Shown piece after piece: positions 17,079-39,790 of a stretch of 64,000 nucleotides of DNA (positions are counted from its first letter, which is position 1; each line of letters starts with the position of its first letter). The DNA lies in the NCBI GenBank assembly GCA_018676675.1, contig JABHEG010000064.1, positions 26,211-90,210 of the forward strand, read 5' to 3'. The notes under the pieces were generated by a model. That model had not been told where the DNA came from, did no database searches, and saw nothing but the letters and a program-made list of their open reading frames with translations. The position numbers and the translations under genes were made by a program. This DNA comes from Lentisphaerota bacterium. Lineage in GTDB: Bacteria; Verrucomicrobiota; Lentisphaeria; Oligosphaerales; JABHEG01.

Positions 17079-17105
17079 CGAGCAGCGGGAAGCAGGTAGC
17101 GATCA

Positions 17106-19867: not shown

Positions 19868-22800
19868 CAAAACAACCGACGTCCCTGACGCAGCGGCTGA
19901 GCCGCCTCGTCCGGCAGAAGCACTTGTTCTTCGCCGGACAGGCTCTCACACTCATCGGTCTGCTCGCCTTCATCCTTGCGGGAGCAGTCATTGCCGCCGA
20001 CGTCCTGTTCGGTCTGCAGGCCTGGGTCCGCTGGGCAGCCTTCTTCGTGCTTCTTACCGTCAGCATTGGGGGCCTCCTCCGACGGTTCCTCTTCCCCTCC
20101 CTCCACTACCACAATCCGGAAGCCGTCCGAGAAGTGGAACACCGTTTCGAAGACATGGGGCAGATGCTCCGCACGACAGCTCAGATCGGCGATCCCGAAA
20201 CCGCCCGGGAGGCGGGGTTCTCGCCCGGCCTGGTCAAGGCACTTCAAGACCAGGCAGAAGAACGGGTAGCCGAGACGGATCTGGCCGTGCTCGTGCCGTG
20301 GGGAATCGTGCGTAGGCGGGCCACCGAGCTGGCGCTTGTGCTCCTGGTCTTCGTAGCCGCCCTCTTCCTGTGGAAGGACTTCCGGCGCGGCGCTCAGCGC
20401 CTGCTTCTGCCGGCTGCCGAACTCCCCTTCACGGGTGTGGAAGCCACCGCGTCGACCCCGACCTTCGAACGAGGCGACACGGTCGTTCTGACAGCGCGAA
20501 CGAGCGGACGCCTCACCGACTGTGCCGACCTCCATATCCGTGAAGAAGAGGGTGAATGGAACATCTTCCGGATGGATCCGTTACCCGGTCGCCAATTCAG
20601 CCTCCCCCTCGGAGGGCGCAACGCAAGTTTCGAATTCTACGTCAGCTCAGGTGACGGACGAACCGCAATCTCCCCCGTGCGCTTCATCGATCCCCCAGTC
20701 GTGTTGACTGTCACAGCAAGCCTGACCTACCCCGTCTATACCGGACTTCCCGCGGAAGACGTTGAGGGCGAACAGGTCCTGGCGGTTGAGGGTACGCGAG
20801 CTCGCGTGACGTTCAAACTCAACCACGGGCTGGCGACCGCAGACGCACGATGGCAGGAGCAGGACGTCGCCCTGGAATTCGGCGAGGACACGGTCGTATG
20901 TGAGCTGGAGATCGTGGTCGGGAAACACGTCCTTGAGCTCACGGGGGAAGATGACGATGACTTGCCGTTGGCCCCCTTCCGGTTCACGATCACCGGTCTC
21001 CCGGACCGCCTGCCGAAGATCGAGATCCTGGAACCGACGGAAAACCCCACGGTGACGAAACTGACTGAGGTCCCCGCCCTGATCCGGGCGCGAGATGACT
21101 TCGGGTTGGCGGAGCTCGGACTCGTCCTGAGCGTCAATGGGCAAGAGAGCGTGCTTGACGCCCGGACATTCACGGAGCAGGACTCGATGTTCGCGTCACG
21201 GTTGTCACACGCGATTTTGTTGGAAAGACACGCCCTCGACTTCCGCTCAAACGTCCGCTTGTATGCCTTTGCACGAGACCACAAGCCGCGGGAGGGGGCC
21301 CGGGCAGTGAGTGACCTCGTCGCGATCGACATCCGCCCCTTCAGGATCCTCTACCGCATGAAGCCTCCTGAGGAACCCTCGATGAGCGAGGCCGAGATGG
21401 AGGAACAGGCCGACAACATCGAAGAACTTGAGAAGGCCATCACAGCTCAGCGTCGAGCGCTTTCGCAGACATTCCGGATGCGCGAACAGCAGACGACGGA
21501 CCCCCAGAGCGCAGAGGCCCTCGCCCGGACGGAGGAAGCGTTGGCGGAAAAGGTCAGCGAAATCAGTGAAATCGCAGCCCCACTGACCGAACCGCAGAAT
21601 CAGAGCCTCCTTCCCGAGGCCGCCCAGGCCATGCTTAAGGCAGCCGAGGAGCTCCGCGAGCCTGATGCGGCCGAGGCGTTCACTGCCGAAGACACGGCGC
21701 TCGCGAACATGCTGAAAATGCGTGAAGAACTCATACACGAGCTTCGCGAGCAGCAACAGAACTCACCCCCCAAGCCATCCTCAAAGAAGCAGCAGAAGCC
21801 CAAGCCGCAGCAACCTCTCGATACGTTGGCAGCCGAGGCAGAACGCCTTGCCAGGGAAGAGGAAGCGATCGCGCAGCAGCTGGAAGACAGGCCGCCGGAG
21901 GAAGAGAACGCGCAGCCTCCGTCGCGGCCGCCGCCGCAGGCCCCCCAGCAGAGCGAGGCGGCGGCGGAACGCCAGCAGGCTGATGCCGAAGCCACAGAGC
22001 AGCCTCAGCAGAGCCCCGAAGCACAGGCCGCCGCACAGGATGAACAGGCCGCCGCACAGCAGCAGCCCCAACAGGCCGCCGAGCAGGATGAACAGGCCGG
22101 CGCGCAACAGCAAACTCAACAAGCTACCGAGCAGGATGAACAGGCCGCTGCACAGCAGCAGCCCCAACAAGCTGCCGAGCAGGAGACCGCCCAAGAGCAG
22201 TCTCCCGAAGCGCCGCCCGAGGGTCCCGAAACAACTGAGGAGCAGGCGGCCACACAGCCTGGGCAGGAGCAACCTGAAACACAGATGCCTGAAGCGGACT
22301 CGGGTGAGCAGCCGGAAACCCAGGCAGAAGCCGAGGATGCTGACCAGCCTGAGGAGACCGCCGCGCAGGAGACCGCGCAGGGAGAGGCCGAGTCCAGCTC
22401 CGCCGCCGAACAACCCGCCGCCGAGCAACAACCGGAGCAGGCCGCCTCATCGGAAGGCGCTCCAGATGAGGAACAGGCCCAGGAGTCCAGCCCTCAGGAC
22501 ACTCAGAGCCCAGCCGAACAGGCGGTCACCGAGGCGGCCGAACGACAGGCGAGGGCGGTCGCCGCCGCTAATGCGCTGCAGGACCAGCTTGACGACCATG
22601 CAGAGACGACCGAGCTGGCCATGGAACGAATGAACGAGGTCGCCCAGGCGATGAATCAGGCCGCGGAGGCGTTGGCCGAAGCAAGGCCCGAAGCCGCGCA
22701 GCCTTCCCTTGACGACGCGGCTGAACGGCTGGAACAGCTCGCCGAACACCTGCGGGGGCTGGACCAGAAGAACTTGGCTGACATGCTCACTCAGGCTCAA

Positions 22801-24186
22801 GAGAAGGCGGAACAGGCCGCTCAGCAACTTGAGAACCCGCCCGAACCCAGTTCTGCAGCTGCGCCCCCGCCTGAAGGTGAGGAACAGCCTCAGGCCAACG
22901 CCCCCGCCTCCCCCCAATCGCCGCAGCAGGCCCAGAGCCAGCCAGAGGAGAACGAGCCCCAGGAAGCGCAGCCTTCCCAGAGCCAGCCGCAACAGGCTCA
23001 ACCTCAGGAAGCACAGGCAGCCCAGGGACAACCGCAGCAACCCCAACCCCAGGAAGCGCAGGCAGCCCAGGGGCAGCCACAACAGGGCGAACCCCAGGAA
23101 TCACAACCTTCCCAGAGCCAACCACCCGAACAAGGCCAGCCTCAGGAAGCGCAGGCAGCCCAAGGACAGCCACAGCAATCTCAGCCTCAAGAATCACAAC
23201 CCTCCCAGACCCCGTCGCAATCGCCCTCCCAACAGCAGCAGGCTCAGCAACAGGACGCAAGCAATCCGTCGGAAGAGGCGGAGCAGCGCCCAACTGAGGA
23301 TGCCACGGCTCAGCGCGAAGCCACCGCTCAGGATGCGGAAACAGTCGCGGACTGGCTGCGCCAGGCGTCCGAAAGGGAAGCTGATGGCCTCGAGGCGATG
23401 CAGGAACGGCTGGCCGAAGCGAGGGAGAAGCTCGCGGTGGATGAACTCGGGGATGACATCCGCCAGGCCCAGGAACAGCGCGAGCAGCAACAGGGTGCCG
23501 AGGCGTCACGCATGGAGGCCAGTGCAGCCGAACGGTTCCGCGAACTCGCCGATACCCTGGCCAAGGAGAAGCAGCGCCTTGTGCAGGCCCACTTGGAACG
23601 CCTGGCTGAAGCTGAAGCCGAAGCAACGGAACTCAAACGGACCGCAGAAGCCGAACAGCAAGCCGCAGAAGCCGAGGCACAGGCGCAGAGCGAGAGTCAA
23701 TCTGAGTCTGAAGCACAAGCACAAGCGCAGAGCGAGAGTCAATCTGAGTCTGAAGCACAGGCGCCGAGCCAGTCACCATCTGAATCACAGGCAAAGAGCG
23801 AGGCGCAAGCTGAAGCGCAATCACAGGCCGAAGCGAAAGGCGAATCGGGGAAGGCGAGCCCCCTCAAACCCGACACGACTGAGAGACTGACGGAACTCGC
23901 TGAGGAACTGAAGGACCTGAAGGATGAGGAACTGGACGAGTTGGGCGATCAGTTGCTTGAGCAGGTCGGAGCGCAAAACGTGAGCGGTGGGCACCGGACG
24001 GCCCAGGTGGCCCCAAAAGATATTGCCGAGACGACGCTGGAGCCGACCGTTGAACGCCTGCGCACACTGATCAATGAGATTGTGCAGAAGGAGTTCCTGC
24101 TCAATCGAGACGACCGCGTCCCGGACCGTTACACCCGCCTCGTTGAGCGTTACTTTAAGGCCCTTTCCGACGACTTGGCCGAATAG
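19864..24186 (+). CDS. 1440-aa membrane-anchored, highly acidic Q/E/A/P-rich low-complexity protein (DUF4175-like position after BatA). Overlaps the upstream gene by 4 bp.
   Basis: Two N-terminal TM helices (LTLIGLLAFILAGAVIAADVLFGL, AAFFVLLTVSIGGLL), a structured ~500-aa region, then ~800 aa of EQ/AQ/PQ repeats. Single uninterrupted frame. Confidence 0.7.
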   Translation: MTKQPTSLTQRLSRLVRQKHLFFAGQALTLIGLLAFILAGAVIAADVLFGLQAWVRWAAFFVLLTVSIGGLLRRFLFPSLHYHNPEAVREVEHRFEDMGQMLRTTAQIGDPETAREAGFSPGLVKALQDQAEERVAETDLAVLVPWGIVRRRATELALVLLVFVAALFLWKDFRRGAQRLLLPAAELPFTGVEATASTPTFERGDTVVLTARTSGRLTDCADLHIREEEGEWNIFRMDPLPGRQFSLPLGGRNASFEFYVSSGDGRTAISPVRFIDPPVVLTVTASLTYPVYTGLPAEDVEGEQVLAVEGTRARVTFKLNHGLATADARWQEQDVALEFGEDTVVCELEIVVGKHVLELTGEDDDDLPLAPFRFTITGLPDRLPKIEILEPTENPTVTKLTEVPALIRARDDFGLAELGLVLSVNGQESVLDARTFTEQDSMFASRLSHAILLERHALDFRSNVRLYAFARDHKPREGARAVSDLVAIDIRPFRILYRMKPPEEPSMSEAEMEEQADNIEELEKAITAQRRALSQTFRMREQQTTDPQSAEALARTEEALAEKVSEISEIAAPLTEPQNQSLLPEAAQAMLKAAEELREPDAAEAFTAEDTALANMLKMREELIHELREQQQNSPPKPSSKKQQKPKPQQPLDTLAAEAERLAREEEAIAQQLEDRPPEEENAQPPSRPPPQAPQQSEAAAERQQADAEATEQPQQSPEAQAAAQDEQAAAQQQPQQAAEQDEQAGAQQQTQQATEQDEQAAAQQQPQQAAEQETAQEQSPEAPPEGPETTEEQAATQPGQEQPETQMPEADSGEQPETQAEAEDADQPEETAAQETAQGEAESSSAAEQPAAEQQPEQAASSEGAPDEEQAQESSPQDTQSPAEQAVTEAAERQARAVAAANALQDQLDDHAETTELAMERMNEVAQAMNQAAEALAEARPEAAQPSLDDAAERLEQLAEHLRGLDQKNLADMLTQAQEKAEQAAQQLENPPEPSSAAAPPPEGEEQPQANAPASPQSPQQAQSQPEENEPQEAQPSQSQPQQAQPQEAQAAQGQPQQPQPQEAQAAQGQPQQGEPQESQPSQSQPPEQGQPQEAQAAQGQPQQSQPQESQPSQTPSQSPSQQQQAQQQDASNPSEEAEQRPTEDATAQREATAQDAETVADWLRQASEREADGLEAMQERLAEAREKLAVDELGDDIRQAQEQREQQQGAEASRMEASAAERFRELADTLAKEKQRLVQAHLERLAEAEAEATELKRTAEAEQQAAEAEAQAQSESQSESEAQAQAQSESQSESEAQAPSQSPSESQAKSEAQAEAQSQAEAKGESGKASPLKPDTTERLTELAEELKDLKDEELDELGDQLLEQVGAQNVSGGHRTAQVAPKDIAETTLEPTVERLRTLINEIVQKEFLLNRDDRVPDRYTRLVERYFKALSDDLAE
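22035..22186 (+). repeat. Tandem 48-bp repeat x ~3 inside the 19864 CDS (encodes EQDEQAAAQQQPQQAA units)
   Basis: gagcaggatgaacaggccgccgcacagcagcagccccaacaggccgcc is repeated with a few substitutions. Confidence 0.7.
22960..23215 (+). repeat. Degenerate tandem ~39-42-bp repeats inside the 19864 CDS (QPQEAQAAQGQPQQ units)
   Basis: cctcaggaagcgcaggcagcccagggacagccgcagcaa-like units recur ~6 times. Confidence 0.6.
23684..23767 (+). repeat. Near-perfect 42-bp direct duplication inside the 19864 CDS (AQSESQSESEAQAQ)
   Basis: gcgcagagcgagagtcaatctgagtctgaagcaca occurs twice back-to-back. Confidence 0.75.
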
Positions 24187-26533: not shown

Positions 26534-27016
26534 TCAGAAGAACACCAGGCGTATCTTGGGAATGGCGCCGCAGTGGATTTCGAGTTCTCGGAAGGCGAGG
26601 GATCCAACCCGGACAGCCCGACGCAGAGGAGCGGTCTTCAGGACGGCAATCAGGATCAGGTGAGCCAGCCGATGCTCTTTGGATTCGGCGAGAACAGCGT
26701 CCTTTGTTGCCTCGTCAATCTCTTCGCGCACGGTGAATCTGGGGACAACTTTCGGCGGCATGCCGATGTCGACCGACAGTGAGTCGAGCACATAGCCGGC
26801 CTTCTCGAGGTAGGGCACGGCGTCGTGTAGTTCGTCGGTGATCTGCTTGATCTTGCGGTGGCTGAAGTCCCGCAAAGGTGCAGGCGGCTCCTCGGGCGGC
26901 ACGAGTTCCTGCGGGACAGGCGGCGGGCCATGCCCTCCGGGAAGTGCGTGCTTTACCTCATCAACCACGCCTCCCGCAGTACGAATTGCGCCATCCATCA
27001 GTGAGAGTTTTGCCAT
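26534..27016 (-). CDS. Hypothetical protein (160 aa), divergent from the pspA operon
   Basis: ORF convergent with the 24192 gene and divergent from pspA. No recognisable domain. Contains a proline-rich linker PPPVPQELVPPEEPPAP. Confidence 0.35.
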   Translation of the reverse strand: MAKLSLMDGAIRTAGGVVDEVKHALPGGHGPPPVPQELVPPEEPPAPLRDFSHRKIKQITDELHDAVPYLEKAGYVLDSLSVDIGMPPKVVPRFTVREEIDEATKDAVLAESKEHRLAHLILIAVLKTAPLRRAVRVGSLAFRELEIHCGAIPKIRLVFF

Positions 27017-27198: not shown

Positions 27199-27972
27199 AT
27201 GGGGATCTTTCGTTCTATATATCGGTATGTCGTGACTCTGGGAGGTCTGATCGAGAGTGACATCAGCGGCAAGACCGATGACATGCTCTCTACGCCCTCC
27301 GGGATCAAAGCCACGTTTTCCAAGACCCGCGGCCAATGGACTCGGCAGTACGGGGAAGTGCGGGAAGCCGTAGCTCAACTCATGATGGTCCTTGATCAGA
27401 AGAGTCGCCGAGTCGCCCAGTTGCGAGAGGAAGCAGAGGCCACTCAGGCGAAGCTCAAGGGTGCTGTCGCCAAGTTCAAGGAGACCGACGAGCCCCACTA
27501 CCGCCAGGCTTTCACGGAGCTCTTTGAGCGAGACAAAGCAATCACTGCCGAACAGCAAGGGCTTAGCGATGAGATCGTCGAGCTGCGCAACAAGGTGGAG
27601 AGCTACAAGACAAAACTGCGTGAAATGCAGACGCGCATTTCCGGCTTGAAGAAGCAGGAATCCGAAGCGATCGCCGACATCGTCAGCAGTCAGCAGATCA
27701 TCAAGCTCAACGACAGCTTGAACGAGTTGACAACCGATCTCGACGACCAGAACGTTCGAGCAATCGAGGACCGGCGGCTGAAGCTCCTGAGCCAGGCCAA
27801 ACTCTCCGGCGAACTCACGGAGGGCGAATTGAAGCCGGATCTGGATAAGGAACTCCTGGAGGCAGGCCGGAAGTCAGAAGTCGACGACGTCTTCGCCGCG
27901 ATGTTGGCGGAAACGGAGGCCAGCGCTCCTGAAGCCGAGGAAGAGGAAGGCGAGCGGCAACGTGAAATCTGA
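27199..27972 (+). CDS. pspA: PspA/IM30/Vipp1/LiaH-family protein (bacterial ESCRT-III-like membrane-remodelling protein)
   Basis: N-terminus MGIFRSIYRYV, then a long heptad coiled-coil (RVAQLREEAEATQAKLKGAVAKFKE...). Size and pattern are typical of the PspA/IM30 family. Confidence 0.75.
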   Translation: MGIFRSIYRYVVTLGGLIESDISGKTDDMLSTPSGIKATFSKTRGQWTRQYGEVREAVAQLMMVLDQKSRRVAQLREEAEATQAKLKGAVAKFKETDEPHYRQAFTELFERDKAITAEQQGLSDEIVELRNKVESYKTKLREMQTRISGLKKQESEAIADIVSSQQIIKLNDSLNELTTDLDDQNVRAIEDRRLKLLSQAKLSGELTEGELKPDLDKELLEAGRKSEVDDVFAAMLAETEASAPEAEEEEGERQREI

Positions 27973-27996
27973 CGTCGGCAGTGAAGGGGAGGCAGT

Positions 27997-29775
27997 GTGG
28001 TGGGTAAGACCCAGTTAGATCTGGGGTTCATGGAGCAAATCCGGGACTGGTTCCTCTCTCAGCAGTCGAATCAGTTCCTGGTGACAGGCAACGTTCTCGA
28101 CGTCCTGCGCTGTCCATGGCTGTCTCGGGAAGAACAGCTGTCCGACGCGAACTACGTGTCTCTCCCCGACTATTTGACCACGCGCCTCTCCATGAAGCAG
28201 CGGGTGATCATCACCTTCAACATTGCTCGTGGACTGACCTTCGCAGACGACGCGTCCCATGACATAGCCCGGCGCATCTATCTGTCCCGCTTCGAGCCGG
28301 AGGACGTAGAAGACGCGGAGGAGCGATTCAACGACGTGGTCGCACGCAGCGCAAGCTGGACGTTCCCCGCCCTGGTCCTGTTGCGCAAGCTCTGCGAAGC
28401 TTCCTCGCAACCCCCGCGCCCCAAAGGGGCATCCATCGCCGTGATCATCGAACATGCAGAGAGTCTGCTCCCAAACCTCCCCATTGCCCGCATGGGCGAC
28501 ACCGACCGGCAGCGACTCGTCTTCTTCAAGGAATGGCTGACAGAACGCGGATTCGTGATGTCAGACCACCTGCTGGTGCTCGTGTCCGAGACGGCCAGTG
28601 CGGTCAATGAATCGCTCAGATCCCTCCCTCATCTCGTGACCATCAATATTCCCCTTCCTGAGGAGGACGAACGTCGACGTTTCATTCAGTGGTGCCTGCG
28701 GCGCAATCCCGGGCTTCAGTTGGTCGGCACGCAGAAGGAGTTCGCCCGAATCAGCGCAGGAATGACACTGATGGGCATTGAGCAGACGATTCGGCTGGCC
28801 CAGTACAGACGCGGGAAACTGACCCGCGCGGACTTTGTTGCCTGCCTCAAACGGCTCCTGGTAAGCCGGATCGGTGACCACGTTGAGCTGGTCGAGCCCC
28901 AACATACGCTCGCAGACGTCCTGGGGAACGCCGCTCTGAAGAGCCAGCTCAAGCGCATCACAACGGCCTTGGACCAAGGAGATCCAGGCACCGCTCCGGT
29001 CGGGATCCTGATGACCGGACCGAACGGCGTAGGAAAGACCTTTATCGCTCTTGCCTGGGCCCGGGAAAGTGGACGAACAGCCCTGATACTGCGGAATCTG
29101 CGCAGTTCCTTCTTCGGGGAGACCGATCAGATTTTCGAGAAGATCCGTCAAGTGCTTGAGGTCCTGGGCAATGTGATGATCCTGGTAGACGAAGCGGATA
29201 CGGTATTTGCCCGGCCGGGAGCCAACGTGCATGAGACCGAGCAGCGTCTCTTCGGTAACGTGATCCAGATGATGGGCGATCCTCAGAACCGGTCACGCAT
29301 CCTCTGGGTGCTGATGACGGCCCGCCCGGACAACCTGGCCCCGGACCTGAAACGCAGCGGGCGCTGTGGTCTCCACCTGCCGGTTTTCGATCCGGAGGAT
29401 TCGGATCGACGCCAGTTCGTGGAGGATCTCCTGGCACGGAACGGTGCCAGCATTGACGAAATGCCCACTGAGGGCCTGACAGAGTTCGAAGACCGGACAC
29501 GCGATTACAGCGCAGCAGACTTCCGCGAACTGGCGGCTGAGCTCAAAACCGAGGAGCTGGCTCTAGGGCATCCATTGGCGCCCGACGAGATCCTTGGTGT
29601 TGTGCGCGACATGCTGCCGGCCGAAGGTGGGCCTGAACGCCGAATGCAGACCCTTCAGGCGTTCATGCACTGCTCACGGAAATCACTCGTCCCGAAAAGC
29701 CTGCGCCATCTGGATCGCGAGACCGTAGCGCGTCAAGTTGCGACTATGCAGGGACACACCGACGACGGAGGATAG
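27997..29775 (+). CDS. Classic-clade AAA ATPase (Vps4/FtsH/CbbX/SpoVK-like single active module) with ~330-aa N-terminal domain of unknown function (possibly a degenerate AAA-like module)
   Basis: Walker A GILMTGPNGVGKTF, Walker B VMILVDEADTVF, sensor-1 VLMTARPDNLAPDL, arginine-finger-region RSGRCGLHL. 24 bp after pspA, with a GGAGG-like RBS. Confidence 0.7.
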   Translation: MVGKTQLDLGFMEQIRDWFLSQQSNQFLVTGNVLDVLRCPWLSREEQLSDANYVSLPDYLTTRLSMKQRVIITFNIARGLTFADDASHDIARRIYLSRFEPEDVEDAEERFNDVVARSASWTFPALVLLRKLCEASSQPPRPKGASIAVIIEHAESLLPNLPIARMGDTDRQRLVFFKEWLTERGFVMSDHLLVLVSETASAVNESLRSLPHLVTINIPLPEEDERRRFIQWCLRRNPGLQLVGTQKEFARISAGMTLMGIEQTIRLAQYRRGKLTRADFVACLKRLLVSRIGDHVELVEPQHTLADVLGNAALKSQLKRITTALDQGDPGTAPVGILMTGPNGVGKTFIALAWARESGRTALILRNLRSSFFGETDQIFEKIRQVLEVLGNVMILVDEADTVFARPGANVHETEQRLFGNVIQMMGDPQNRSRILWVLMTARPDNLAPDLKRSGRCGLHLPVFDPEDSDRRQFVEDLLARNGASIDEMPTEGLTEFEDRTRDYSAADFRELAAELKTEELALGHPLAPDEILGVVRDMLPAEGGPERRMQTLQAFMHCSRKSLVPKSLRHLDRETVARQVATMQGHTDDGG

Positions 29776-29780
29776 AACCA

Positions 29781-30181
29781 TGGAACTTGCCGATCCCAAA
29801 GTCATCTACGCCGACATCCTCATCGCGCTCGCCAATGCGGATGACATCGTTGACCCGCGAGAACGAGAGATGCTGGACGGAATTTTCACCCAAATGGGAT
29901 TGGGCGAAGAGACGGTCGCCAAGCTCTGGCTCACGCCGCGAACCCTCGATGTGGCCGAGGCGCTCCTTAAGGACATCACGGATGCTCGCTTCAAACGCTG
30001 TCTCCTGAAAGACTGCTACCTGCTTGCCTATGCCGATGAGGACATCGAGCCGGGCGAAAGCAAATTTATCAAGGCCATGCAGGGAGCGTCCGGTCTCGAT
30101 GATGACGTCGTGGATGCCATCGGGGAATGGGTGGAAACCGCGGTAGCGCAACAGCGCAAAGCCGCCGAACTTTTCGAATAG
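29781..30181 (+). CDS. TerB-like (tellurite-resistance TerB / DjlA-N fold) small protein
   Basis: MELADPKVIYADILIALANADDIVDPREREMLDGIFTQMGL...CYLLAYADEDIEPGESKFIKAM is a paired-helix TerB-like pattern. GGAGGA RBS 7 nt upstream. Starts 6 nt after the AAA gene stop. Confidence 0.5.
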
Positions 30182-30234
30182 ACGCACGTCCGTCAATCGC
30201 TCCGAGGACGCGCTACTGCGAAAGGACATGAAAC

Positions 30235-30903
30235 GTGGAGCTCTTCCAGACAATCACCAGTTCAGGGATGTTCCCCTACACGGTCCTGCTAGGCCTGATG
30301 GTGCTCTATTGGGTCGTGGTCATCATCGGGGCTATCGATATCGGCATTCTCGACTTCTTTGATTTCGGAGACCTGGGCGAGGCGGCCGAGGGAGCAGCGG
30401 AAGGTGTCGAGGCAGCGGGTGAAGCGGCCGAGGGCATGGACGGGGTATTCTCAGCAATCCTTGGCTTCCTGAGCTTGGGACAGGTACCGGTGACCGTGGT
30501 GCTGTCACTGTTGATCTTGAAGCTATGGTTCCTGGCGCTCCTCATGACGCTCTACCTACCGGCATCGCTGCGTGATGTCGTTCCGCCTCTCTTCCTGGGT
30601 GCGGCCGGCTTTGTCTTCGCGTTCATCGTGAGTGTGATGCTCACAGGCTTGACAGCTCGCCCGCTGCGGCGCGTGTTCAAGCGGAACCCGGTGCGAGGCC
30701 ATGCGCACCTGGTGGGCCAGATCTGCAAGGTCAAGAGTTCGCGTGTGACCGAGAAGTTCGGGCAAGCCGAACTGCGGGTGCGCAATTCATTCCTTCTCAT
30801 CGAAGTGAGGTCCAAAGAGGAAGAGGAACTCGAACGCGGACAGGAAGCGGTTATCGTGAGCTATGACCACGATCGCGATGTGTATCACGTTAGGGGGGTG
30901 TAA
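30235..30903 (+). CDS. NfeD-like (YuaF/YqiJ-like) membrane protein with C-terminal OB-fold, partner of SPFH proteins
   Basis: N-terminal TM helices (YTVLLGLMVLYWVVVIIGAI, VTVVLSLLILKLWFLALLMTL) and a C-terminal beta-rich domain (GQICKVKSSRVTEKFGQAELRVRNSFLLIEVRS...EAVIVSYDHDRDVYHVRGV). Directly upstream of a flotillin. Confidence 0.55.
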   Translation: MELFQTITSSGMFPYTVLLGLMVLYWVVVIIGAIDIGILDFFDFGDLGEAAEGAAEGVEAAGEAAEGMDGVFSAILGFLSLGQVPVTVVLSLLILKLWFLALLMTLYLPASLRDVVPPLFLGAAGFVFAFIVSVMLTGLTARPLRRVFKRNPVRGHAHLVGQICKVKSSRVTEKFGQAELRVRNSFLLIEVRSKEEEELERGQEAVIVSYDHDRDVYHVRGV

Positions 30904-30989
30904 TCGCGCAGTCCTGCGCAGGACTGCCGCAGACGTAATGAACCACAAGTTATCTGAGTAACTGGAAACGGAAAAGGAGAGATGGGGCA

Positions 30990-33011
30990 ATGAATGGAAT
31001 TGTGTTCGCAGGGATTCTCGGGCAGAGCATCGGCATGATGATTTTGGGAGGCGCACTAATTTTCGTGGGCTTGATGGTGCTGATCATGAAGTTCTACCGC
31101 AAGGTGGAACAGGGCAAAGCACTGATTGTCAACTGCTGGGGTGACAAGGTCACGGTTACGTTCACCGGTGGGGTGGTCTACCCAATCATTAACAAAGCCG
31201 AGGTCATGGATATCTCGGTGAAAGCGATGGAGATCGAGCGTGAAGGCAAGAACGGTCTGATTTGCGAGGACAACATCCGAGCAGACATCCGTGTGACCTT
31301 CTATGTGCGGGTGAACAAGACCGAGGACGATGTGCTGAAGGTCGCCCAGGCTGTGGGCTGTGCTCGAGCCTCGGCCCGAGAAACACTCGAAGAGCTCTTC
31401 CAAGCCAAATTCTCGGAAGCTCTGAAGACCGTCGGTAAACAGATGGGGTTCATCACTCTGTTCACCGAACGCGAGAGCTTCAAAGAACAGATCATCATGG
31501 TCATTGGGGAAGACCTGAACGGCTACAAGCTGGAAGATGTCGCTATCGACTACCTCGAACAGACCCCGCTGAGCTCGCTTGAGCCGGACAACATCCTGGA
31601 CTCCCAGGGCATCCGTAAGATCGTCGACCTCACCTCGACTGAGGCCATGGCCACGAACGAATTCCGACGGAACAAAGAGCGGGTGATCAAGCAACAGGAC
31701 GTTGAGACGCGAGAGAAGATCCTCGAGCTCGAGCGGCAGGAAGCCGACGCTGAAGCCAAGCAGCACCGTGAGATTGCAACCGTTCAGGCGCGGGAAACGG
31801 CGGAAGCAGAGAAGGTTCAGGCCGAGGAACGTCTCAAGGCTGAGCGAGCTCAGATCCAGACGGCCGAGGAATTGGCGGTCGCGGAACAGAACAAGGACCG
31901 CCAGGTCGAGGTCGCGGCCAAGGCCAAAGAACGCACGATCGCGGTTGAGACCGAGCGGGTCATTCGGGACCGCGAGCTGGAGGAGGTCGAGCGTGAACGC
32001 CTGGTGGCGCTGAAGTCGATCGAGAAGGAGAAAGCGGTCGAGATCGAGAAGAAGCAGATCCAGGATGTCATCCGTGAGCGGGTTATGGTCGAGCGGACCG
32101 TGGCTGAAGAACAAGAGAAGATCAAGGACACGGTTGAGATTGCGGGAGCTGAGCGTGAACGGAAAACACGCGTAATTGCCGCAGAGCGGGATGCCCAGGA
32201 GCTCGTGGTCAAAGAGGTGAAGGCAGCCGAAGCGAAAGAGGAAGCCGCGAAGAGCCTCTACGAAGAGCAGGTGACGATGGCGGAAGCTAGTCGCATCAAG
32301 GCTGAAAAGGAAGGCGAAGCGAAGAAGACACTCGCGGCAGGAACGGTGGCTGAGAAGTCGGCGGAAGGACTGGCCGACGTGCGGGTGCAGGAAGCGGAAG
32401 CAAACGCCATTGAGCTGCGCGGCAAGGCAGAAGCCGTAGCCCAGATCGAGGGCCACAAGGCCACGGCGTTCGGGACCGAGACGACCGGTGAAGCCAAAGC
32501 CAAGGCTATGACGCTGGAGTACCAGGCCGAGGCCACGGGCATCAACCAGAAGGCCGACGCCATGAAGCGGCTGGATGAGGTCGGACGTGACCACGAGGAG
32601 TTCAAACTCGAACTCACCAAGGAAGAGCGCGTCGAGCTGGCCACCATCGACGTCAACCGCCAGATCGCCGAGGCTCAGGCCACGGTGTTGGCAGAAGCCA
32701 TGAAGACCGCCAAGATCGATATCGTGGGCGGGGACGGCGAATTCCTCAAGAACTTCCTCCGCTCCGTCAGTCTGGCTAAGTCGGTCGATGAATTCGTGAG
32801 TAAGAGTGACGAAGCCCAGAAGCTGCTGGACGGAGATGACGGGAACATCGCGTCGCGGATGGCGGATGTCCTGTCCTCCGCGGGCATTGGCTCCGATGAC
32901 GTCCGCAACTTGAGTCTGGCCAACTTGATGGCCAAACTCGGCGAAACCAAAGGCGGTCCCCAGGCGATTGAAGGGCTGCGGGAAATGATGGTCGGCTGGC
33001 TCGAGAAGTAG
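30990..33011 (+). CDS. floT: Flotillin-like SPFH/band-7 protein (FloT/YuaG/YqiK-type) with long coiled-coil region
   Basis: N-terminal TM (FAGILGQSIGMMILGGALIFVGLMVLIMKF). SPFH domain (ALIVNCWGDKVTVTFTGGVVYPIINKAEVMDISVKAM...). Then ~350 aa EA-rich heptads typical of flotillins. Confidence 0.8.
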   Translation: MNGIVFAGILGQSIGMMILGGALIFVGLMVLIMKFYRKVEQGKALIVNCWGDKVTVTFTGGVVYPIINKAEVMDISVKAMEIEREGKNGLICEDNIRADIRVTFYVRVNKTEDDVLKVAQAVGCARASARETLEELFQAKFSEALKTVGKQMGFITLFTERESFKEQIIMVIGEDLNGYKLEDVAIDYLEQTPLSSLEPDNILDSQGIRKIVDLTSTEAMATNEFRRNKERVIKQQDVETREKILELERQEADAEAKQHREIATVQARETAEAEKVQAEERLKAERAQIQTAEELAVAEQNKDRQVEVAAKAKERTIAVETERVIRDRELEEVERERLVALKSIEKEKAVEIEKKQIQDVIRERVMVERTVAEEQEKIKDTVEIAGAERERKTRVIAAERDAQELVVKEVKAAEAKEEAAKSLYEEQVTMAEASRIKAEKEGEAKKTLAAGTVAEKSAEGLADVRVQEAEANAIELRGKAEAVAQIEGHKATAFGTETTGEAKAKAMTLEYQAEATGINQKADAMKRLDEVGRDHEEFKLELTKEERVELATIDVNRQIAEAQATVLAEAMKTAKIDIVGGDGEFLKNFLRSVSLAKSVDEFVSKSDEAQKLLDGDDGNIASRMADVLSSAGIGSDDVRNLSLANLMAKLGETKGGPQAIEGLREMMVGWLEK

Positions 33012-33022
33012 GACGATTGAAG

Positions 33023-36000
33023 ATGGCTGACGAAGAAACCAGACAGGACGTGGCCCAAAACCGGCAGGAAGAGGCAGCCGAGCAGCAGTCTCTCGAAGGC
33101 GGAGCATATGAGGTCCTCCGAAAACGCCTGGAGGCGTTGGACGGGGACCTATGCTCACGCCTCGAGAAACTCAACGTTGCCCGGAAGGAGGTGTTCGGGG
33201 GTAAGGAGTCCCAGGTCATTGGGAATGACAGGATCCCGACTGACAACAACTGTGTGCCACGGGACATCACAGGTGTCGGCGACTATGTCATCTTTGGTTA
33301 CAACGTCTTCATCGGTCTGCGGACCCAGACCAAGATTGGTGATGTGCTCAGCGTACACTTGCTGGAGGACACACACTTCCGTCACGTAGACAACGAGGTG
33401 CTGTCCGACCCGAGATTCGTCAAGGACTTCACCGAACTCTACACCTACTACAAGCATGCCCGCTTCCTTCAGTTTGTCCGGAAGACGGGGTCGCTCCTGA
33501 TCATCTTCCAGACCGGCGCAAGCCTGGACGACGTCTGCATATTCCGGTTCCAGGTCAACAAGGACGACACGGTTGAGTACATCGACAATCGGGGTGATAT
33601 CCACTACAAACTGCCGGCCCAGCATGAGTTTGAGTGGGTTAGTACGACCCGGGACAACCAGGTCCAGGGCATGCACCCCCACATCAGCGTTGACGACAGG
33701 GTGTTTGTCGAGTGCACGGAAGGTGACCTGACCATCAAGGTCGAGAACAACACCGAGACGGGCGAAGGCGTCTACTCAGAGCCGGTAGACAACAAGGACC
33801 AGACGCTGGACGATGCGGACATTCGGTACGCGATCGTCGGCGACCTGATTCTGTTCAGGATTCGGCCCTACCGTGAAGACCGCGACCGCCATCTTGTGTT
33901 CAACCAGAAGCGGCAGACTGCCGTCCGCATGGATTCCATCGCTCAAGCATGCATCCAGTTGCCTGAAGACCACGGCATCATTACCCCAAAGGGCTACTAC
34001 CTCCAGGATGGACGGCAGCGGGAATTCGATGAAAACGTCGAGGGGATGGGCTATCTCGAGTGCATCAAATCCCCCAACGGCGAGGACTTCCTTTACATCT
34101 TCTACCACGTCGCCCAGGGACGACACGTCCTGATCCAGTACAACCTCATCTCCAAAGAGCTGAGCACGCCGATCTTCTGTCACGGTTACTCCCTGTACGG
34201 CGATGGCCGGATGGTGCTCTTCAGTGCCCCGGACGAAGAGCCCAAGCGCATCCACCCAATGCAGGTTTGGCAGACTCCCTTCTACGCTGATACGCACGAG
34301 GTAACTCAGGACGCAGATTCGTTCCTGGGCAAGATCGGCAACCGGGCGTTGGTTCGCGGCATCTCCGAAGGGTACGCAATCAGTCGGCTCATCACGAGCA
34401 GCCACATCACTCTGGAGACATACCACGACTCGATCAGAGCCACCACGCACATGCTGGACGGCTACCATTGGCTGGGGCATGAGGACGTCTTCGATCTGCA
34501 AGGCGTGGTGCAGCAGGTGAAGGCAGCGGCCGTAGCCGCGGTAGACGAGTACGAGAAGGTCGTCACCATCAGGGAGAGCACGGAACAGCAGTTGCGCGAG
34601 AATGATGCCGCGGTCCGTGATTGTCTACTGACGTTCAGCATCGACCGCATGGAGTCCATCGATGATTATGTCAATGGACTGGCCGGGATCCGTTCGCGGC
34701 GTGGTCACATCATTTCTCTGCGAGAACTCCGCTACGTTGATCTAGAGCTGATTGATCGGCTCGATGGGAGGCTTGAGGAACGCAGCGGGGAGCTCGCCCT
34801 GTCATGCGTGGATTTCCTGCTCAGGCCGGACGCGCTGAAGCCCTACACCGCAGTGAACACCGAACTGGATGCCAAGCTGGAAGAGGTCGGCAAGATCGCC
34901 GATCTCAAACCCATTATCGAATCTCTCGAAGACTTGGCCGGCCGACTCGACCTGTTGACCGATATTGTCAATAATCTGGAGATCGACGACGCGACCAAGA
35001 CAACCCGGATTGTCGACAGCATCACCGACGTATACGCGGGGGTGAACCGCACGCGAGCCATGGCGCGGACACTGCGCCAGGACATTGGCAAGGTCGAAGC
35101 CAAAGCCGAATTCGCCGCCCAGTTCAAGCTGGTCAGCCAAAGCATCACCAACTACATCGGCATGTGCGACACGCCGGAGAAGTGTGACGAACTGCTGACC
35201 AAAGTGATGGTGACGGTTGAGGAACTCGAGGGACGCTTCGCTGACTACGAGGAATACGTCACACAGCTAGCCGAGAAACGTGAAGAGGCCTACACCGCCT
35301 TCTCCAGCCGAAAACAGGTACTGGATGAGGAAAGGAAGCGCCGCGTTTCCTCTCTCGTGTCATCGGCGGAACGCATCTTGAAAGGCGTGGTCAACCGAGC
35401 CGAGACATTCGAGAGCATTGATGAGGTGAATGCGTACTTCGCATCCGACCTCATGGTCTCGAAGGTGCGCGACGCCATCACCCGCCTCCATGAGATTGGG
35501 GACTCCGTCAAGGCCGATGACTTGACCGGCCGGCTGCGAAGCTCCAAAGATGAGCTTATCCGCCACCTCAGGGACAAGATCGACCTGTTCCAGGGCGGCG
35601 ACAACATCATCTCCTTCGGCGACTACCGATTCACCGTCAATACCCAGCCCCTCGAACTGACCACGGTGTATCGCGACGATGAGATGGTCTTCCATCTGAC
35701 CGGGACGGACTTCTACGAAGCCATCGAGGATCCTGAATTCCTGGCCACTCGCGACCTATGGCAGCAGCAACTCGTCAGCGAGAGCAGGGATGTGTACCGC
35801 GGGGAGTTCCTGGCCTACCAGATGCTGACTGCAGCCATCAATGGACAGTCAGGACTCTCAACCGGCCTGCTGACAGAAAAAGCTGAAGCAGAGGAATTGT
35901 TGCCGTTGGTGAGGGAGTTTTCCGCCGCTCTGTATGACGAAGGCTACGAGCGGGGTGTCCATGACCACGATGCTGGACTCATCCTTACCGCGATCATCCA

Positions 36001-38284
36001 GCTCTACAACACCTGCGAACTTTTGCGCTACGACTCCACCTCCCGTGGGCATGCGATCCTCTTCTGGTGCTTCTACGAGGGCGAGGACGTCAAGACCATG
36101 CTGCGCACACGCATGCGGAGTGTGGGGACGTTGCCCCGGATCTTCGGCCATGATGAACCCAATCTCGAGTACATTGAGGAAATCCGGAAGCGTGTCGAGG
36201 AGTTCCACCGTACCTTGGATCTGGACCTCGACGCCGCCACGCTGGCCCACTCGGCCGAGTATCTCTACTACGAGCTCCAGGATACACACGAACTGGAGTT
36301 CACCGTCAACGCACTGGCTCATCAGCTCCACCAGCGCTTCATCGGTGTGCTGCGCGGACGCAAGGCGTTGAAGCAGTTCGAGGAAGACATTGCAGCCGTT
36401 GACGAGGTCGCCAGACGCATCGATCTGATTGCCGACTGGGTGTCTGCCTTCATCCGCAAGGAGGAGCCTGAAGACAGCGCCCATTTCCTCTGGGAAGTGG
36501 TAGCACTCATTGCGGCCGGAGAAGTCATCAGCCGCGACACGACCGAAGTGACGACCTTTGCCGCGGTTAAGGGGGTTCTTGGCCAGCACCCGCTGATCCA
36601 TGACAAGACGCTTGACCTTCACTTTGATCGTTTCCTGATCAAGATGAAGCAGTTCGCCGAGTCCCGTGTGCCGACGTTCCGTACGTACGTGCATCTCCGG
36701 GCCGAACTCACCGAGAAGCGTCGGCGAGAGATGCGGCTGTCGGAGTTCCAGTCCAAGGTCATGGGCTCCTTCGTCCGCAACAAGTTGATTAACGATGTCT
36801 ATCTCAATCTGGTGGGTGCGAACTTCGCAAAGCAGATGGGTGTGGCCGGCGAAGCGAAGCGGACGGATTTGATGGGATTGCTGCTACTCGTCTCCCCGCC
36901 GGGGTATGGAAAAACGACCCTCATGGAATACGTGGCCAACCGACTGGGCCTGACCTTCATGAAAGTCAACGGCCCGGCAATCGGACACCAGGTGACCTCA
37001 CTGGATCCGGTCGAGGCCCCCAACGCGACCGCACGCGAAGAGCTTGGGAAACTGAATCTTGCCTTCGAGATGGGCAATAACATCATGATCTATCTCGATG
37101 ACATACAGCACCTGAACCCCGAACTCCTTCAGAAATTTATCTCCCTCTGTGACGCTCAGCGGAAGATCGAAGGCGTGTACCGCGGAGTCACGCGGACGTA
37201 CGATCTGCGTGGCAAGAAGGTCGCCGTGGTGATGGCCGGAAATCCATACACAGAGAGTGGCGAGAAGTTCAGGATCCCGGACATGTTGGCTAACCGGGCC
37301 GACACCTACAACCTCGGAGATATCAGCAGTACAGCCGCGGATGCGTTCGCGTTGAGTTTCGTCGAGAACGCCATGACCTCCAATCCCGTCCTCTCGAAAA
37401 TCGCTTCCCATGGGCATGAGGACATCTATCGTTTCATGGATGTCGTGCGGAAGGGGTCGCAGGAAGGCATCGAGTTCGACTACAGCTACTCAGCCGCGGA
37501 AGCCAAGGAGATCACCGATGTTCTCGCTAAGCTCTGCACGGTACGCGATGTCGTTCTTCGAGTTAACAGCCAGTACATCGCCTCTGCGGCTCAGGAGGAT
37601 GACTACCGCACGGAGCCGCCTTTCAGGCTTCAGGGCTCCTACCGGAACATGAATCGAATGGCGGAGAAGGTTTTCCCGGTCATGACCGACGAGGAAGTCA
37701 TTCAGGTCGTCTTCGACCATTACTACAATGAGGCTCAGACGCTCACGACCGGAGCCGAAAGCAATATCCTCAAGTTCAAGGAGATGATGCAGGCTCTGAC
37801 CGACGATGAGCAGGCTCGGTGGCAGGAGATCAGGACCGAGTTCGGTCGACGCCAAGTGCTGTCGGGAGTTGACGATACGGATGACCTGGGCAAGATTCTA
37901 GCCCAGCTCTCGGGCTTCAACGCAGGGATGGGGCGCATTCGGGACACGCTGAACAGCGGCCTTGGATCAGGTATGAAAGCCCTCACCGAGGCCGTTCAGA
38001 AGACGACCGAGAAGGGCCCTGATGAGGGACCGTCCATCGACCTGGCTCCCGTGGTCGAGGCTCTGCAGCAACTCCGGGACGCGCCAAAGCAGGACGCCCC
38101 TGCCACCCAGGCGCTGCCCGGCTACGACGAAGCGTTGGCAAAGCAAGTGTCACTGCTCGAGTGTCTCGTCCCCATGGTCGAGCACCTGGAGGAGCAGTCA
38201 ATCACGCACGTCCGCATCCGTGAGCTGATTGAGGGAATTCTCTCCGGAAACGTCGTCGTGGCCATGAACTCCGGCGGCCAGTAG
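33023..38284 (+). CDS. Giant (~1754 aa) protein: ~1250-aa N-terminal region with no recognisable domain + single C-terminal MoxR/AAA_5 (dynein-related)-type P-loop ATPase module
   Basis: Walker A LLLLVSPPGYGKTTLMEYVANRL, Walker B IMIYLDDIQHLNPE, sensor-1 VAVVMAGNPY, Arg MLANRADTYNLGD. Starts 11 nt after the flotillin stop, so it is probably translationally coupled. The longest-ORF TTG at 33017 was trimmed to the ATG at 33023. Confidence 0.7.
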   Translation: MADEETRQDVAQNRQEEAAEQQSLEGGAYEVLRKRLEALDGDLCSRLEKLNVARKEVFGGKESQVIGNDRIPTDNNCVPRDITGVGDYVIFGYNVFIGLRTQTKIGDVLSVHLLEDTHFRHVDNEVLSDPRFVKDFTELYTYYKHARFLQFVRKTGSLLIIFQTGASLDDVCIFRFQVNKDDTVEYIDNRGDIHYKLPAQHEFEWVSTTRDNQVQGMHPHISVDDRVFVECTEGDLTIKVENNTETGEGVYSEPVDNKDQTLDDADIRYAIVGDLILFRIRPYREDRDRHLVFNQKRQTAVRMDSIAQACIQLPEDHGIITPKGYYLQDGRQREFDENVEGMGYLECIKSPNGEDFLYIFYHVAQGRHVLIQYNLISKELSTPIFCHGYSLYGDGRMVLFSAPDEEPKRIHPMQVWQTPFYADTHEVTQDADSFLGKIGNRALVRGISEGYAISRLITSSHITLETYHDSIRATTHMLDGYHWLGHEDVFDLQGVVQQVKAAAVAAVDEYEKVVTIRESTEQQLRENDAAVRDCLLTFSIDRMESIDDYVNGLAGIRSRRGHIISLRELRYVDLELIDRLDGRLEERSGELALSCVDFLLRPDALKPYTAVNTELDAKLEEVGKIADLKPIIESLEDLAGRLDLLTDIVNNLEIDDATKTTRIVDSITDVYAGVNRTRAMARTLRQDIGKVEAKAEFAAQFKLVSQSITNYIGMCDTPEKCDELLTKVMVTVEELEGRFADYEEYVTQLAEKREEAYTAFSSRKQVLDEERKRRVSSLVSSAERILKGVVNRAETFESIDEVNAYFASDLMVSKVRDAITRLHEIGDSVKADDLTGRLRSSKDELIRHLRDKIDLFQGGDNIISFGDYRFTVNTQPLELTTVYRDDEMVFHLTGTDFYEAIEDPEFLATRDLWQQQLVSESRDVYRGEFLAYQMLTAAINGQSGLSTGLLTEKAEAEELLPLVREFSAALYDEGYERGVHDHDAGLILTAIIQLYNTCELLRYDSTSRGHAILFWCFYEGEDVKTMLRTRMRSVGTLPRIFGHDEPNLEYIEEIRKRVEEFHRTLDLDLDAATLAHSAEYLYYELQDTHELEFTVNALAHQLHQRFIGVLRGRKALKQFEEDIAAVDEVARRIDLIADWVSAFIRKEEPEDSAHFLWEVVALIAAGEVISRDTTEVTTFAAVKGVLGQHPLIHDKTLDLHFDRFLIKMKQFAESRVPTFRTYVHLRAELTEKRRREMRLSEFQSKVMGSFVRNKLINDVYLNLVGANFAKQMGVAGEAKRTDLMGLLLLVSPPGYGKTTLMEYVANRLGLTFMKVNGPAIGHQVTSLDPVEAPNATAREELGKLNLAFEMGNNIMIYLDDIQHLNPELLQKFISLCDAQRKIEGVYRGVTRTYDLRGKKVAVVMAGNPYTESGEKFRIPDMLANRADTYNLGDISSTAADAFALSFVENAMTSNPVLSKIASHGHEDIYRFMDVVRKGSQEGIEFDYSYSAAEAKEITDVLAKLCTVRDVVLRVNSQYIASAAQEDDYRTEPPFRLQGSYRNMNRMAEKVFPVMTDEEVIQVVFDHYYNEAQTLTTGAESNILKFKEMMQALTDDEQARWQEIRTEFGRRQVLSGVDDTDDLGKILAQLSGFNAGMGRIRDTLNSGLGSGMKALTEAVQKTTEKGPDEGPSIDLAPVVEALQQLRDAPKQDAPATQALPGYDEALAKQVSLLECLVPMVEHLEEQSITHVRIRELIEGILSGNVVVAMNSGGQ

Positions 38285-39441: not shown

Positions 39442-39790
39442 AGGTGCCATCGTTAGCCGCAGGCGGGTGACGTGACAAAAGGCATCCGAATGAGGCGGAA
39501 CTCAAGGAGCTTGGGGCCACGAAACGGCTGCTCCAAGGTGGCACCGGGCATCCCCTGCCGGGTGATTCTGTGGGAGGCATCCGAATGCCCCGAAACTTAA
39601 GCACCTCGCTCCTGCGAGGCGGCTGCGTCAACGTGGGAGGCGGTGCCACCCGCCGATTGCTTAGTTTCTGGTCTGGAGACAAAGATCGGGGCGTGGCAGC
39701 CCCTCCCACCTTGAAAGGCTACTAAGTTCCGCCTCATCCGAAGGCATCCCTGCCACCGTTTCCACCCCCGCCTCTCACGAAACGGCCAGT
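39442..39790. repeat. Repeat-rich, highly self-complementary 350-bp intergenic region between convergent genes (candidate structured ncRNA or MITE remnant)
   Basis: ggcatccgaatg occurs at 39481 and 39577. atgaggcggaac (39490) has its reverse complement gttccgcctcat at 39726. cacgaaacggc is directly repeated at 39519 and 39776. ggtggcacc (39538) pairs with ggtgccacc (39641). gtgggaggc (39570, 39633) pairs with gcccctcccacc (39699). Confidence 0.45.

Follow-up and report, generated by a model that had tools for sequence, protein, structure and literature searches.

How bacterial polymers resembling ESCRT-III, i.e., those of PspA and Vipp1, are disassembled or remodeled is an open question, and according to a 2025 review a Vps4-like ATPase appears to be absent in bacteria (PMC7619361). 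Considered here is a pair of adjacent genes within 64,000 nucleotides of DNA (the window) from a Lentisphaerota bacterium, i.e., positions 26,211 to 90,210 of contig JABHEG010000064.1 (assembly GCA_018676675.1). The first of these genes specifies a PspA/IM30-like protein and the second an AAA ATPase of the classic clade. The reading which is, on balance, favored is that the two products are a dedicated pair, consisting of a divergent PspA along with a type-II classic AAA that possesses a dead first domain (D1*) and an apparently active second domain (D2), with the ATPase dismantling or remodeling polymers of that PspA.

Such proteins have been described by Ravi et al. 2024 (bioRxiv 2020; mSystems, PMC11237479). 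That study places an ‘Inactive-Classical-AAA+Classical-AAA’ architecture beside PspA and in extended transporter operons, proposes an ATP-dependent membrane remodeling that is comparable to that of Snf7 and VPS4, and offers as exemplars AEY64320.1/AEY64321.1 of Clostridium sp. BNL1100 along with the genomic context of OGG56892.1. Found there as well is an operon that combines flotillin, YqiJ, and a beta-propeller-AAA+ protein. As judged by architecture and by context, the ATPase of the window appears to belong with these ‘inactive AAA plus active AAA’ partners of PspA. The described dyad, that is, like the pair in the window, consists of a dead N-terminal classic AAA domain followed by an active one, is encoded beside PspA, and in some cases is part of operons that supply an ABC ATPase together with its permease and a periplasmic binding protein. 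The order of genes nevertheless can differ, with AAA preceding PspA in the Clostridium example but PspA preceding AAA in the window. Unlike the dyad as so described, the pair in the window is joined to a module consisting of TerB, YqiJ-like, flotillin, and DUF3686 proteins.

The ESCRT-III/Vps4 systems of eukaryotes and Asgard archaea, and also CdvB/CdvC of TACK archaea, resemble what is seen in the window in that a gene of the ESCRT-III superfamily adjoins that of a classic-clade AAA, one which possesses an aromatic pore loop as well as the arginines of the second region of homology (SRH). The window's presumptive polymer subunit also ends with a short motif that is found behind a flexible linker, which may be likened to the logic of the MIT-interacting motifs (MIMs) of ESCRT-III. 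The window's ATPase, by contrast with Vps4 and CdvC, is without a signature of MIT, of the Vps4 beta domain, or of the Vps4 C-terminal helix, and it has two AAA cassettes, with D1 dead, rather than one. The polymer, in addition, is of the PspA type rather than of the Snf7 type.

Makarova et al. 2024 (PMC10936438) describe a third point of comparison, i.e., the archaeal ‘Halo_adaptin’ system, in which a Vps4-like ATPase lacking MIT is encoded beside a PspA-like gene. As in the window, this MIT-less ATPase is found directly 3' of a protein that is weakly similar to PspA. Unlike in the window, however, the ‘Halo_adaptin’ ATPase falls within the Vps4 tree, has a VAT-like double-psi-barrel N-domain, and is accompanied by winged-helix and adaptin-like proteins, none of which are seen in the window (PMC10936438).

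The PspA-like protein

The upstream product, 257 amino acids (aa) in length, had been read from sequence as PspA. This identification holds, though as a weaker call than had been implied. On its own, that is, the protein scores 20 bits against PF04012 (E 5.8e-4), which is below the gathering score of 33.9. Among 26 close homologues, nonetheless, 23 match PF04012, with E-values as low as 2.1e-7, and it is the sole family to be matched consistently. A partner of the Desulfomonile type, from locus L018, exceeds the gathering score (36.4 bits), doing so over profile positions 3-218 of 220.

Predicted structure points in the same direction. The AlphaFold2 (AF2) model of the 257-aa protein has a predicted local distance difference test score (pLDDT) of 74, with long helices spanning residues 33-96 and 99-207 at pLDDT 82-93, i.e., as a helical hairpin. 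When Foldseek compares this model with the PDB, each of the nine best matches is to Vipp1 or PspA, with alignments of 200-218 columns, albeit with weak E-values (2.5e-3 to 4e-2). A profile of the partner family searched against PDB sequences returned coiled-coil noise only, with no PspA or Vipp1 chains, so that comparison of folds is needed to see the relationship. Overall the protein begins with an N-terminal segment, continues as the long hairpin, and, after a linker that is acidic and variable, ends with an R-E-I tail. The N-terminal segment, MGIF..Y.Y..TLGG, is conserved, and its pLDDT is less than 50. With family-wide matches to PF04012, a partner that scores above the gathering threshold, and Foldseek matches to Vipp1 and PspA, the product is accepted as a divergent member of the PspA/IM30 family, that is, of the ESCRT-III superfamily. 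The call from the single protein is marginal and it is family and fold which carry the assignment.

A degenerate first AAA domain

The sequence-only reading saw, ahead of the AAA core of the downstream gene's product, a novel N-terminal domain of about 330 aa that was without an MIT-like signature, and suggested that it might be a module for recognition of PspA or else a degenerate first AAA domain. This latter suggestion, along with the absence of MIT, is borne out, but the claim of novelty is not, as the architecture is described by Ravi et al. 2024 (PMC11237479). Residues 1-330, scanned alone, have no match in Pfam, and are conserved along their whole length within the family. The AF2 model of the ATPase (pLDDT 87.7) displays an AAA-like fold starting from about residue 10, and by Foldseek this model can be aligned at full length, over 600+ columns, with NVL, p97, and a Rix7 from which the N-domain is absent, i.e., with AAA proteins of the tandem D1-D2 sort. 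As D1* begins at about residue 10, there is no room for a separate N-domain ahead of it.

What has decayed in D1* are the sites where nucleotide would be handled. After a strand at about residues 26-31 there comes GNVLD (G-N-V-x-D in the family) rather than the GxxGxGK[ST] of a P-loop, and at the Walker B site there is IAVIIEHAE (IIEHAE or variants in the family) instead of hhhhDE. None of the 27 aligned members has kept the Lys/Thr of the P-loop or the Asp-Glu of Walker B. Still present is the classic element ‘..I.IPLPd...R..FI’. Residues 1-330 thus are, as judged by model and by motif, a nucleotide-dead first AAA domain, i.e., one which cannot bind nucleotide.

This domain is found broadly. 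A HMMER scan with D1*, which covered 1.84 billion representatives, yielded 625 clusters (50% identity) at E<=1e-3, or 209 with the threshold set to E<=1e-10, nearly all of which are represented by proteins of 550-620 aa. Departures from that length include P0164, P0174, and P0202 (818-856 aa), in which two tandem dead D1*-like domains precede an active AAA and there is no PspA. With P0218 (721 aa), D1* instead is fused to an FtsH-like AAA and M41 peptidase, without transmembrane segments.

The second domain and its affiliation

As the sequence-only reading had it, the downstream product indeed is an AAA of the classic clade. PF00004 matches residues 337-461 of the 592-aa protein (61.9 bits), and the motifs which that reading quoted can all be seen and do not vary within the family, i.e., Walker A as GPNGVGKT (340-348), Walker B as ILVDEAD (395-401), and a sensor/SRH stretch, TARPDNLAPDLKRSGR (441-456). 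Pore loop 1 reads F-F-G (aromatic-hydrophobic-Gly) at about residue 372. Across 27 aligned family members, displaying 30-57% identity, invariant positions are G341, N343-G344, G346-K347-T348, D398-E399, R443, and R456, as well as G374 and T376 of the pore loop. A trailing C-terminal helix, which bears QRR.QTL.A..HCS, is conserved as well. Two departures from the norm can be seen. The sensor-1 Asn of classic AAA proteins (ATNRPD) is Ala here (TARPD, residues 441-445), and is Ala or Ser family-wide, and one subclade is without the first SRH arginine (DVK--SRSP). D2 nonetheless retains both Walker motifs along with its aromatic pore loop and the SRH arginines, including the arginine finger, and appears active, i.e., equipped to serve as a substrate-threading motor.

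The claim that this domain is Vps4-clade-like fares less well. D2 was compared by bit score with four reference domains, the yeast Vps4 fragment among them having been checked as 100% identical to 6bmf_A residues 69-263. The D2 of the window scores 63 bits with VAT D1, 49 with VAT D2, 32 with an FtsH-like domain, and just 28 with yeast Vps4. A family D2 profile scores 84, 67, 47, and 51 bits, respectively. Vps4 membership was rejected given the absence of MIT (PF04212) and of Vps4_C (PF09336), the possession of two cassettes, and Vps4 being the lowest scoring of the four references against the window's domain. Among PDB sequences the best relatives are VAT, p97, Cdc48, AFG2, and NVL, but not Vps4. 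The order with NCBIfam models is CDC48 (64.5 bits, versus a cut-off of 802), PAN (40), FtsH (33), and CdvC (29).

The sequence-only reading had named, as what would count against it, firm clustering with CbbX/SpoVK or proteasomal ATPases along with a lack of pspA in most genomes, and this combination is not what is found. NCBIfam models for CbbX and SpoVK had no match at E<=0.01, and PAN, representing the proteasomal ATPases, scored below CDC48. As the four references score 88-203 bits among themselves, a maximum of 63 bits indicates that D2 is very divergent. D2 is, on these scores, best seen as a divergent, long-branched member of the classic clade, one with a Cdc48/VAT-like leaning. Cdc48/p97/VAT and Rix7/NVL supply, that is, the best matches in both sequence and structure, and they share the tandem D1-D2 layout over their full length. 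Versus Cdc48/p97/VAT, however, the ATPase of the window has no N-terminal substrate- or adaptor-binding (double-psi-barrel) domain, and the nucleotide motifs of its D1 have been lost.

Conservation of the pair and of a PspA tail

Whether such an ATPase tends to be encoded with a PspA can be seen from a search of a collection in which each species is represented by a single genome, which supplied 166 ATPase relatives. Eighty of the resulting loci were analyzed, using six-frame open reading frames (ORFs) and iterated profiles, and 73 of these are evaluable, i.e., have 1.2 kb or more of sequence upstream. A PspA-like gene is found directly upstream and on the same strand in 38 loci, separated from that of the ATPase by -29 to 318 bp (median 50). 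It is found 2.5-6 kb upstream, again on the same strand, in another 17, and on the opposite strand in one. The dyad thus is conserved, with a same-strand upstream PspA-like gene in 55 of 73 loci and among many phyla, consistent with the pairing that had been proposed from sequence. Lineages possessing it include Lentisphaerae, Verrucomicrobia, Sumerlaeota, Desulfomonilia, Thermodesulfobacteriota, Acidobacteriota, Poribacteria, Nitrospinota, Obscuribacterales, and Clostridia, and also the cultured Acanthopleuribacter pedis. In those loci with more distant PspA genes that were sampled, an NMT1-type substrate-binding protein (SBP), a permease, and an ABC ATPase are encoded between PspA and AAA. 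Adjacency of PspA and AAA is far beyond chance. Since companion genes vary by clade and PspA is their common denominator, PspA is the core partner of the ATPase, and the flotillin module found in the window is a lineage-specific addition.

The PspAs that accompany these ATPases also end alike. Among partners from the window's own clade the C-terminal end is R-x-[I/L/M] in 38 of 38. Partners of the Desulfomonile type end in K-E-R-D-L-G, with R, L, and G each seen in 100%, and those of the transporter-operon type end in D-R-P-x-I, with R seen in 92% and both P and I in 100%. Overall, R-x(1,2)-[ILM](G)-COOH fits 84 of 92 distinct partner PspAs. Over the approximately 15 positions preceding this tail, by contrast, the commonest residue reaches just 18-45%, the linker there being charged, rich in Ala and Pro, and poorly conserved. 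No mention of the R-x-[ILM] tail was found in the accessible portions of Ravi et al. 2024 (PMC11237479).

A conserved terminal motif that stands behind a flexible linker plausibly could serve as a docking or threading tag, with the ATPase perhaps being what reads it. Comparable cases of short motifs are the MIMs of ESCRT-III, as recognized by Vps4, and the C-terminal tags that are recognized by other AAA unfoldases.

It might be argued instead that adjacency of these genes is simply inherited gene order, with no interaction between their products. In support, many of the positive loci are from related Desulfomonilaceae metagenome-assembled genomes (MAGs), which inflates the count. Adjacency is held, however, across distant phyla and at ATPase identities of just 30-57%, gaps between the genes are short or indeed overlapping, and the pairing has survived insertion of transporter cassettes. 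The partner PspAs, in addition, are a subfamily of their own that possesses a specific tail. A lack of any functional link consequently is very hard to credit.

Various other features of these loci may be recorded. In transporter-type operons a conserved protein of about 305-315 aa is encoded directly upstream of PspA (L079:5116-6030, L010:5178-6104, L055:5338-6285, L066:4975-5916). The L079 copy, which is the only one scanned, has no match in Pfam, and the protein may be the ‘SIG+TM+Snf7’ protein that is mentioned by Ravi et al. Farther upstream in L079 are SBP+OmpA, VWA, and OmpA proteins. L079 and L080 are both from A. pedis KCTC 12899, i.e., the PspA-transporter-AAA operon as found on scaffolds 6 and 2, respectively, with identical coordinates and scores, representing either recent duplication or assembly redundancy. 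With two PspA-less loci of the Desulfomonilales type (L019:7638-9905, L046:7285-9585), a TPR plus Ser/Thr kinase protein of about 760 aa is encoded directly upstream of the ATPase.

Proposed mechanism

If the favored reading, of an ATPase dedicated to PspA polymers, is correct, then the ATPase would form a double-ring hexamer, within which the ring of dead D1* domains would serve as a scaffold or docking platform. The ATPase would engage the exposed C-terminal tail of PspA that is in polymerized form, and with use of ATP by D2 would pull PspA subunits through its pore. Rods, rings, or carpets of PspA on stressed membrane would as a result be disassembled, recycled, or remodeled. The pair, so viewed, would be a functional analogue of ESCRT-III/Vps4, but one that appears to derive from a Cdc48/VAT-like lineage rather than as an orthologue of Vps4.

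A number of considerations weigh against this reading. In the remaining 17 of the 73 evaluable loci there is no PspA-like gene in the available sequence, including in ten with at least 7 kb upstream, and among the products encoded nearby are Ser/Thr kinases as well as glycosidases and a DEAD/DUF3516 helicase. The ATPase therefore may have other clients. The tally of 55 loci, given the relatedness of many of the Desulfomonilaceae MAGs, overstates the number of independent events. ATPase competence is assumed, given that throughout the family Ala or Ser stands where the sensor-1 Asn would be expected. No fusion of PspA with AAA, i.e., of the Rosetta-stone sort, is seen among the best 150 of the 625 relatives of the N-terminal domain. 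Lastly, no experimental study of this ATPase family was found in the literature, and PspA polymers may remodel themselves via their own nucleotide binding (PMC11746142).

Several of these same observations bear on a different possibility, which is that the PspA-like protein is not a substrate but instead an adaptor or regulator. It might inhibit the ATPase in the absence of stress or instead recruit the ATPase to damaged membrane, with the ATPase then extracting or unfolding other clients, such as mislocalized or damaged membrane proteins, as a form of quality control like that of Cdc48, Msp1, or FtsH. That D2 is nearest to the Cdc48/VAT unfoldases would fit with this, as would the lack of a nearby PspA in the 17 loci, and the joining of D1* to an FtsH-like AAA and M41 protease in P0218 points to protein quality control. 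There is precedent, too, in that with E. coli PspA-PspF a protein of the PspA family is coupled to an AAA+ ATPase of the same locus, as an established case of PspA regulating such an ATPase (PMC7619361). PspF, unlike the window's ATPase, however, is an NtrC-type enhancer-binding protein, i.e., of a different AAA+ clade by established classification, which possesses a helix-turn-helix, is transcribed divergently, and is subject to inhibition by PspA rather than acting on PspA polymers (PMC7619361). The ATPase considered here, moreover, is without a DNA-binding, protease, or substrate-recognition N-domain, PspA is its only widely conserved neighbor, and a tail behind a flexible linker resembles a substrate or docking tag more than it does an inhibitory surface. 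A regulatory PspA thus is deemed unlikely, though it is the foremost of the alternatives to a PspA whose polymers are acted upon by its ATPase.

Organization of the locus

Coordinates of the pair and of the genes which follow it are provided in Table 1. Together these are six co-directional genes (27199-38284, + strand), with intergenic gaps, in order, of 24, 4, 53, 86, and 5 bp. The 24-bp gap between pspA and AAA, as originally noted from sequence, is supported by both ORF coordinates and independent gene calls, with the 257-, 592-, and 133-aa genes being reproduced by the latter on four public contigs that carry an identical ATPase. The Shine-Dalgarno (SD) sequence of terB, GGAGGA, is found within the 3' end of the AAA gene. 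Sharing of a promoter by pspA and AAA, as also had been claimed, is not demonstrable. The gap between these genes has no terminator-like site, but promoter-like sites 5' of pspA are no commoner than in shuffled sequence, and with scan counts no higher than those of shuffled sequence the case for co-transcription is one of gene spacing only.

Table 1. Genes and domains of the six-gene cluster, in coordinates of the window.
Feature	Position	Strand	Remarks
PspA/IM30-like gene	27199-27972	+	257 aa, ATG start, SD AGGAGG ~10 nt upstream
Classic-clade AAA ATPase gene	27997-29775	+	592 aa, GTG start, SD GGGGAGG upstream
AAA residues 1-330, degenerate first AAA domain (D1*)	27997-28986	+	AF2 model and motif decay
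AAA residues 331-592, D2 with lid and C-terminal helix	28987-29775	+	PF00004, invariant motifs
TerB-domain protein	29780-30181	+	133 aa; PF05099 30.5 bits versus gathering score 24.4
Multi-pass membrane protein with soluble C-terminal domain	30235-30903	+	222 aa; provisionally YqiJ/YuaF(NfeD)-like, by hydrophobicity and position
Flotillin-like SPFH/Band-7 protein	30990-33011	+	673 aa; PF01145 49.1 bits on residues 1-250
Giant AAA+ protein, DUF3686/DUF7902/AAA	33017-38284	+	1755 aa; PF12458 611.7 bits, PF25472 86 bits, PF00004 34 bits

The 222-aa membrane protein has no match in searches of Pfam, NCBIfam, or PDB sequences, and is only provisionally described as YqiJ/NfeD-like, i.e., given its hydrophobic segments and its place before flotillin. 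The flotillin-like protein consists of an N-terminal transmembrane segment, Band_7, and then a long coiled coil that is rich in E, A, and K. At full length it has no match in Pfam or the PDB, with Band_7 surfacing only after removal of that coiled coil. Missing of Band_7 by whole-protein scanning looks like an effect of bias filtering, which is relevant to automated annotation. In the DUF3686 giant, PF00004 matches residues 1289-1409.

This arrangement is shared by few. TerB is encoded 3' of the AAA in L001 and L002, as in the window, but in no others of the 80 loci. L002 alone, again as in the window, also has a YqiJ-like protein, flotillin, and DUF3686 after the ATPase, since in L001 there is just TerB. 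In L002 orthologues of the membrane protein and of flotillin occupy the same positions, and a DUF3686 orthologue is present. The dyad thus heads a co-directional cluster of six genes in a Lentisphaerae MAG and in a related Verrucomicrobia MAG. In comparison with the operon of flotillin (YqiK), YqiJ-YuaF, and beta-propeller AAA+ that occurs with CesT/Tir-PspA, as described by Ravi et al., there are in common a Band_7 flotillin, a preceding membrane protein, and a DUF3686 AAA+. Different is that in the window the PspA is of the AAA-partner subfamily, TerB is interposed, and no CesT/Tir gene was detected with the flotillin module. Joining of the dyad to this module suggests a combined membrane-damage response unit.

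Such company invites yet another explanation, which is that the ATPase serves as a chaperone, helping to assemble or maintain whatever envelope complex is encoded with it. That would be an ABC transporter, OmpA/VWA proteins, or lipoproteins in most lineages, or flotillin/NfeD/DUF3686 here, with PspA then a merely co-regulated stress protein. Consistent with this are the 17 loci in which PspA is 2.5-6 kb upstream, those sampled having SBP, permease, and ABC ATPase genes in between, along with OmpA and VWA upstream in L079, and in the window that TerB, YqiJ-like, flotillin, and DUF3686 proteins all follow the AAA. Ravi et al. as well suggest that membrane complexes might be assembled with chaperone-like help of this kind (PMC11237479). 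The companions differ by clade, however, as PspA does not, and 38 loci possess a bare dyad, without transporter or flotillin genes. TerB, flotillin, and DUF3686, furthermore, are confined as companions of the AAA to the window, L002, and in part L001. A chaperone for which PspA is incidental therefore seems improbable, versus an ATPase for which PspA itself is the client.

Flanking the cluster are genes of other kinds. Divergent from pspA is an ORF of 160 aa (26534-27016, - strand), which gene calling recovers on each of the four public contigs. Neither Pfam nor NCBIfam supplies a match for it, it has no homologue in L001-L080, and it is not counted as part of the system. Farther upstream (16071-24186, + strand) is a MoxR (AAA_3)-DUF58-BatA/VWA operon, after which a protein of 1440 aa is encoded. 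Over its C-terminal two-thirds this protein is an extreme Q/E/A/P-rich low-complexity repeat, with an AT skew of 0.53 in 22001-24000, and its first 379 aa have no Pfam match. Downstream (38311-47415), and seemingly unrelated to the cluster, are an M20 peptidase on the same strand, 27 bp past the DUF3686 gene, a PfkB kinase (- strand), a 1210-aa glycosidase that is GH123-like, and a DUF6259/CBM_4_9 protein.

Implications

As the central idea has already been printed as a prediction from comparative genomics, the worth of this locus is as a clean, compact test case rather than as a discovery. What is new here, so far as can be judged from the accessible portions of the published account, are modest additions, i.e., the joining of two published PspA-partner modules in a single cluster of six genes and the conserved tail of partner PspAs. 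The latter supplies a concrete and cheap mutational handle, and A. pedis is a possible experimental host.

As to how bacterial ESCRT-III-like polymers are disassembled or remodeled, this family of ATPases is the best genomic candidate for the factor involved. The family is widespread, as seen with its 625 clusters (E<=1e-3) and its 166 matches in the one-genome-per-species set, the cultured A. pedis included. By extension, though as a tentative proposal for which belief falls somewhat short of doubt, many bacteria may possess an independently evolved equivalent of ESCRT-III/Vps4. In these a PspA paralogue that is tagged with R-x-[I/L/M] would be threaded by a double ring, one with dead D1 and active D2, resulting in ATP-driven turnover, and in Lentisphaerae and Verrucomicrobia this pair would be hard-wired to a flotillin/NfeD-like/TerB/DUF3686 module. 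Such an ATP-driven machine for PspA turnover, if true, would contradict the statement that there is no bacterial Vps4-like regulator (PMC7619361).

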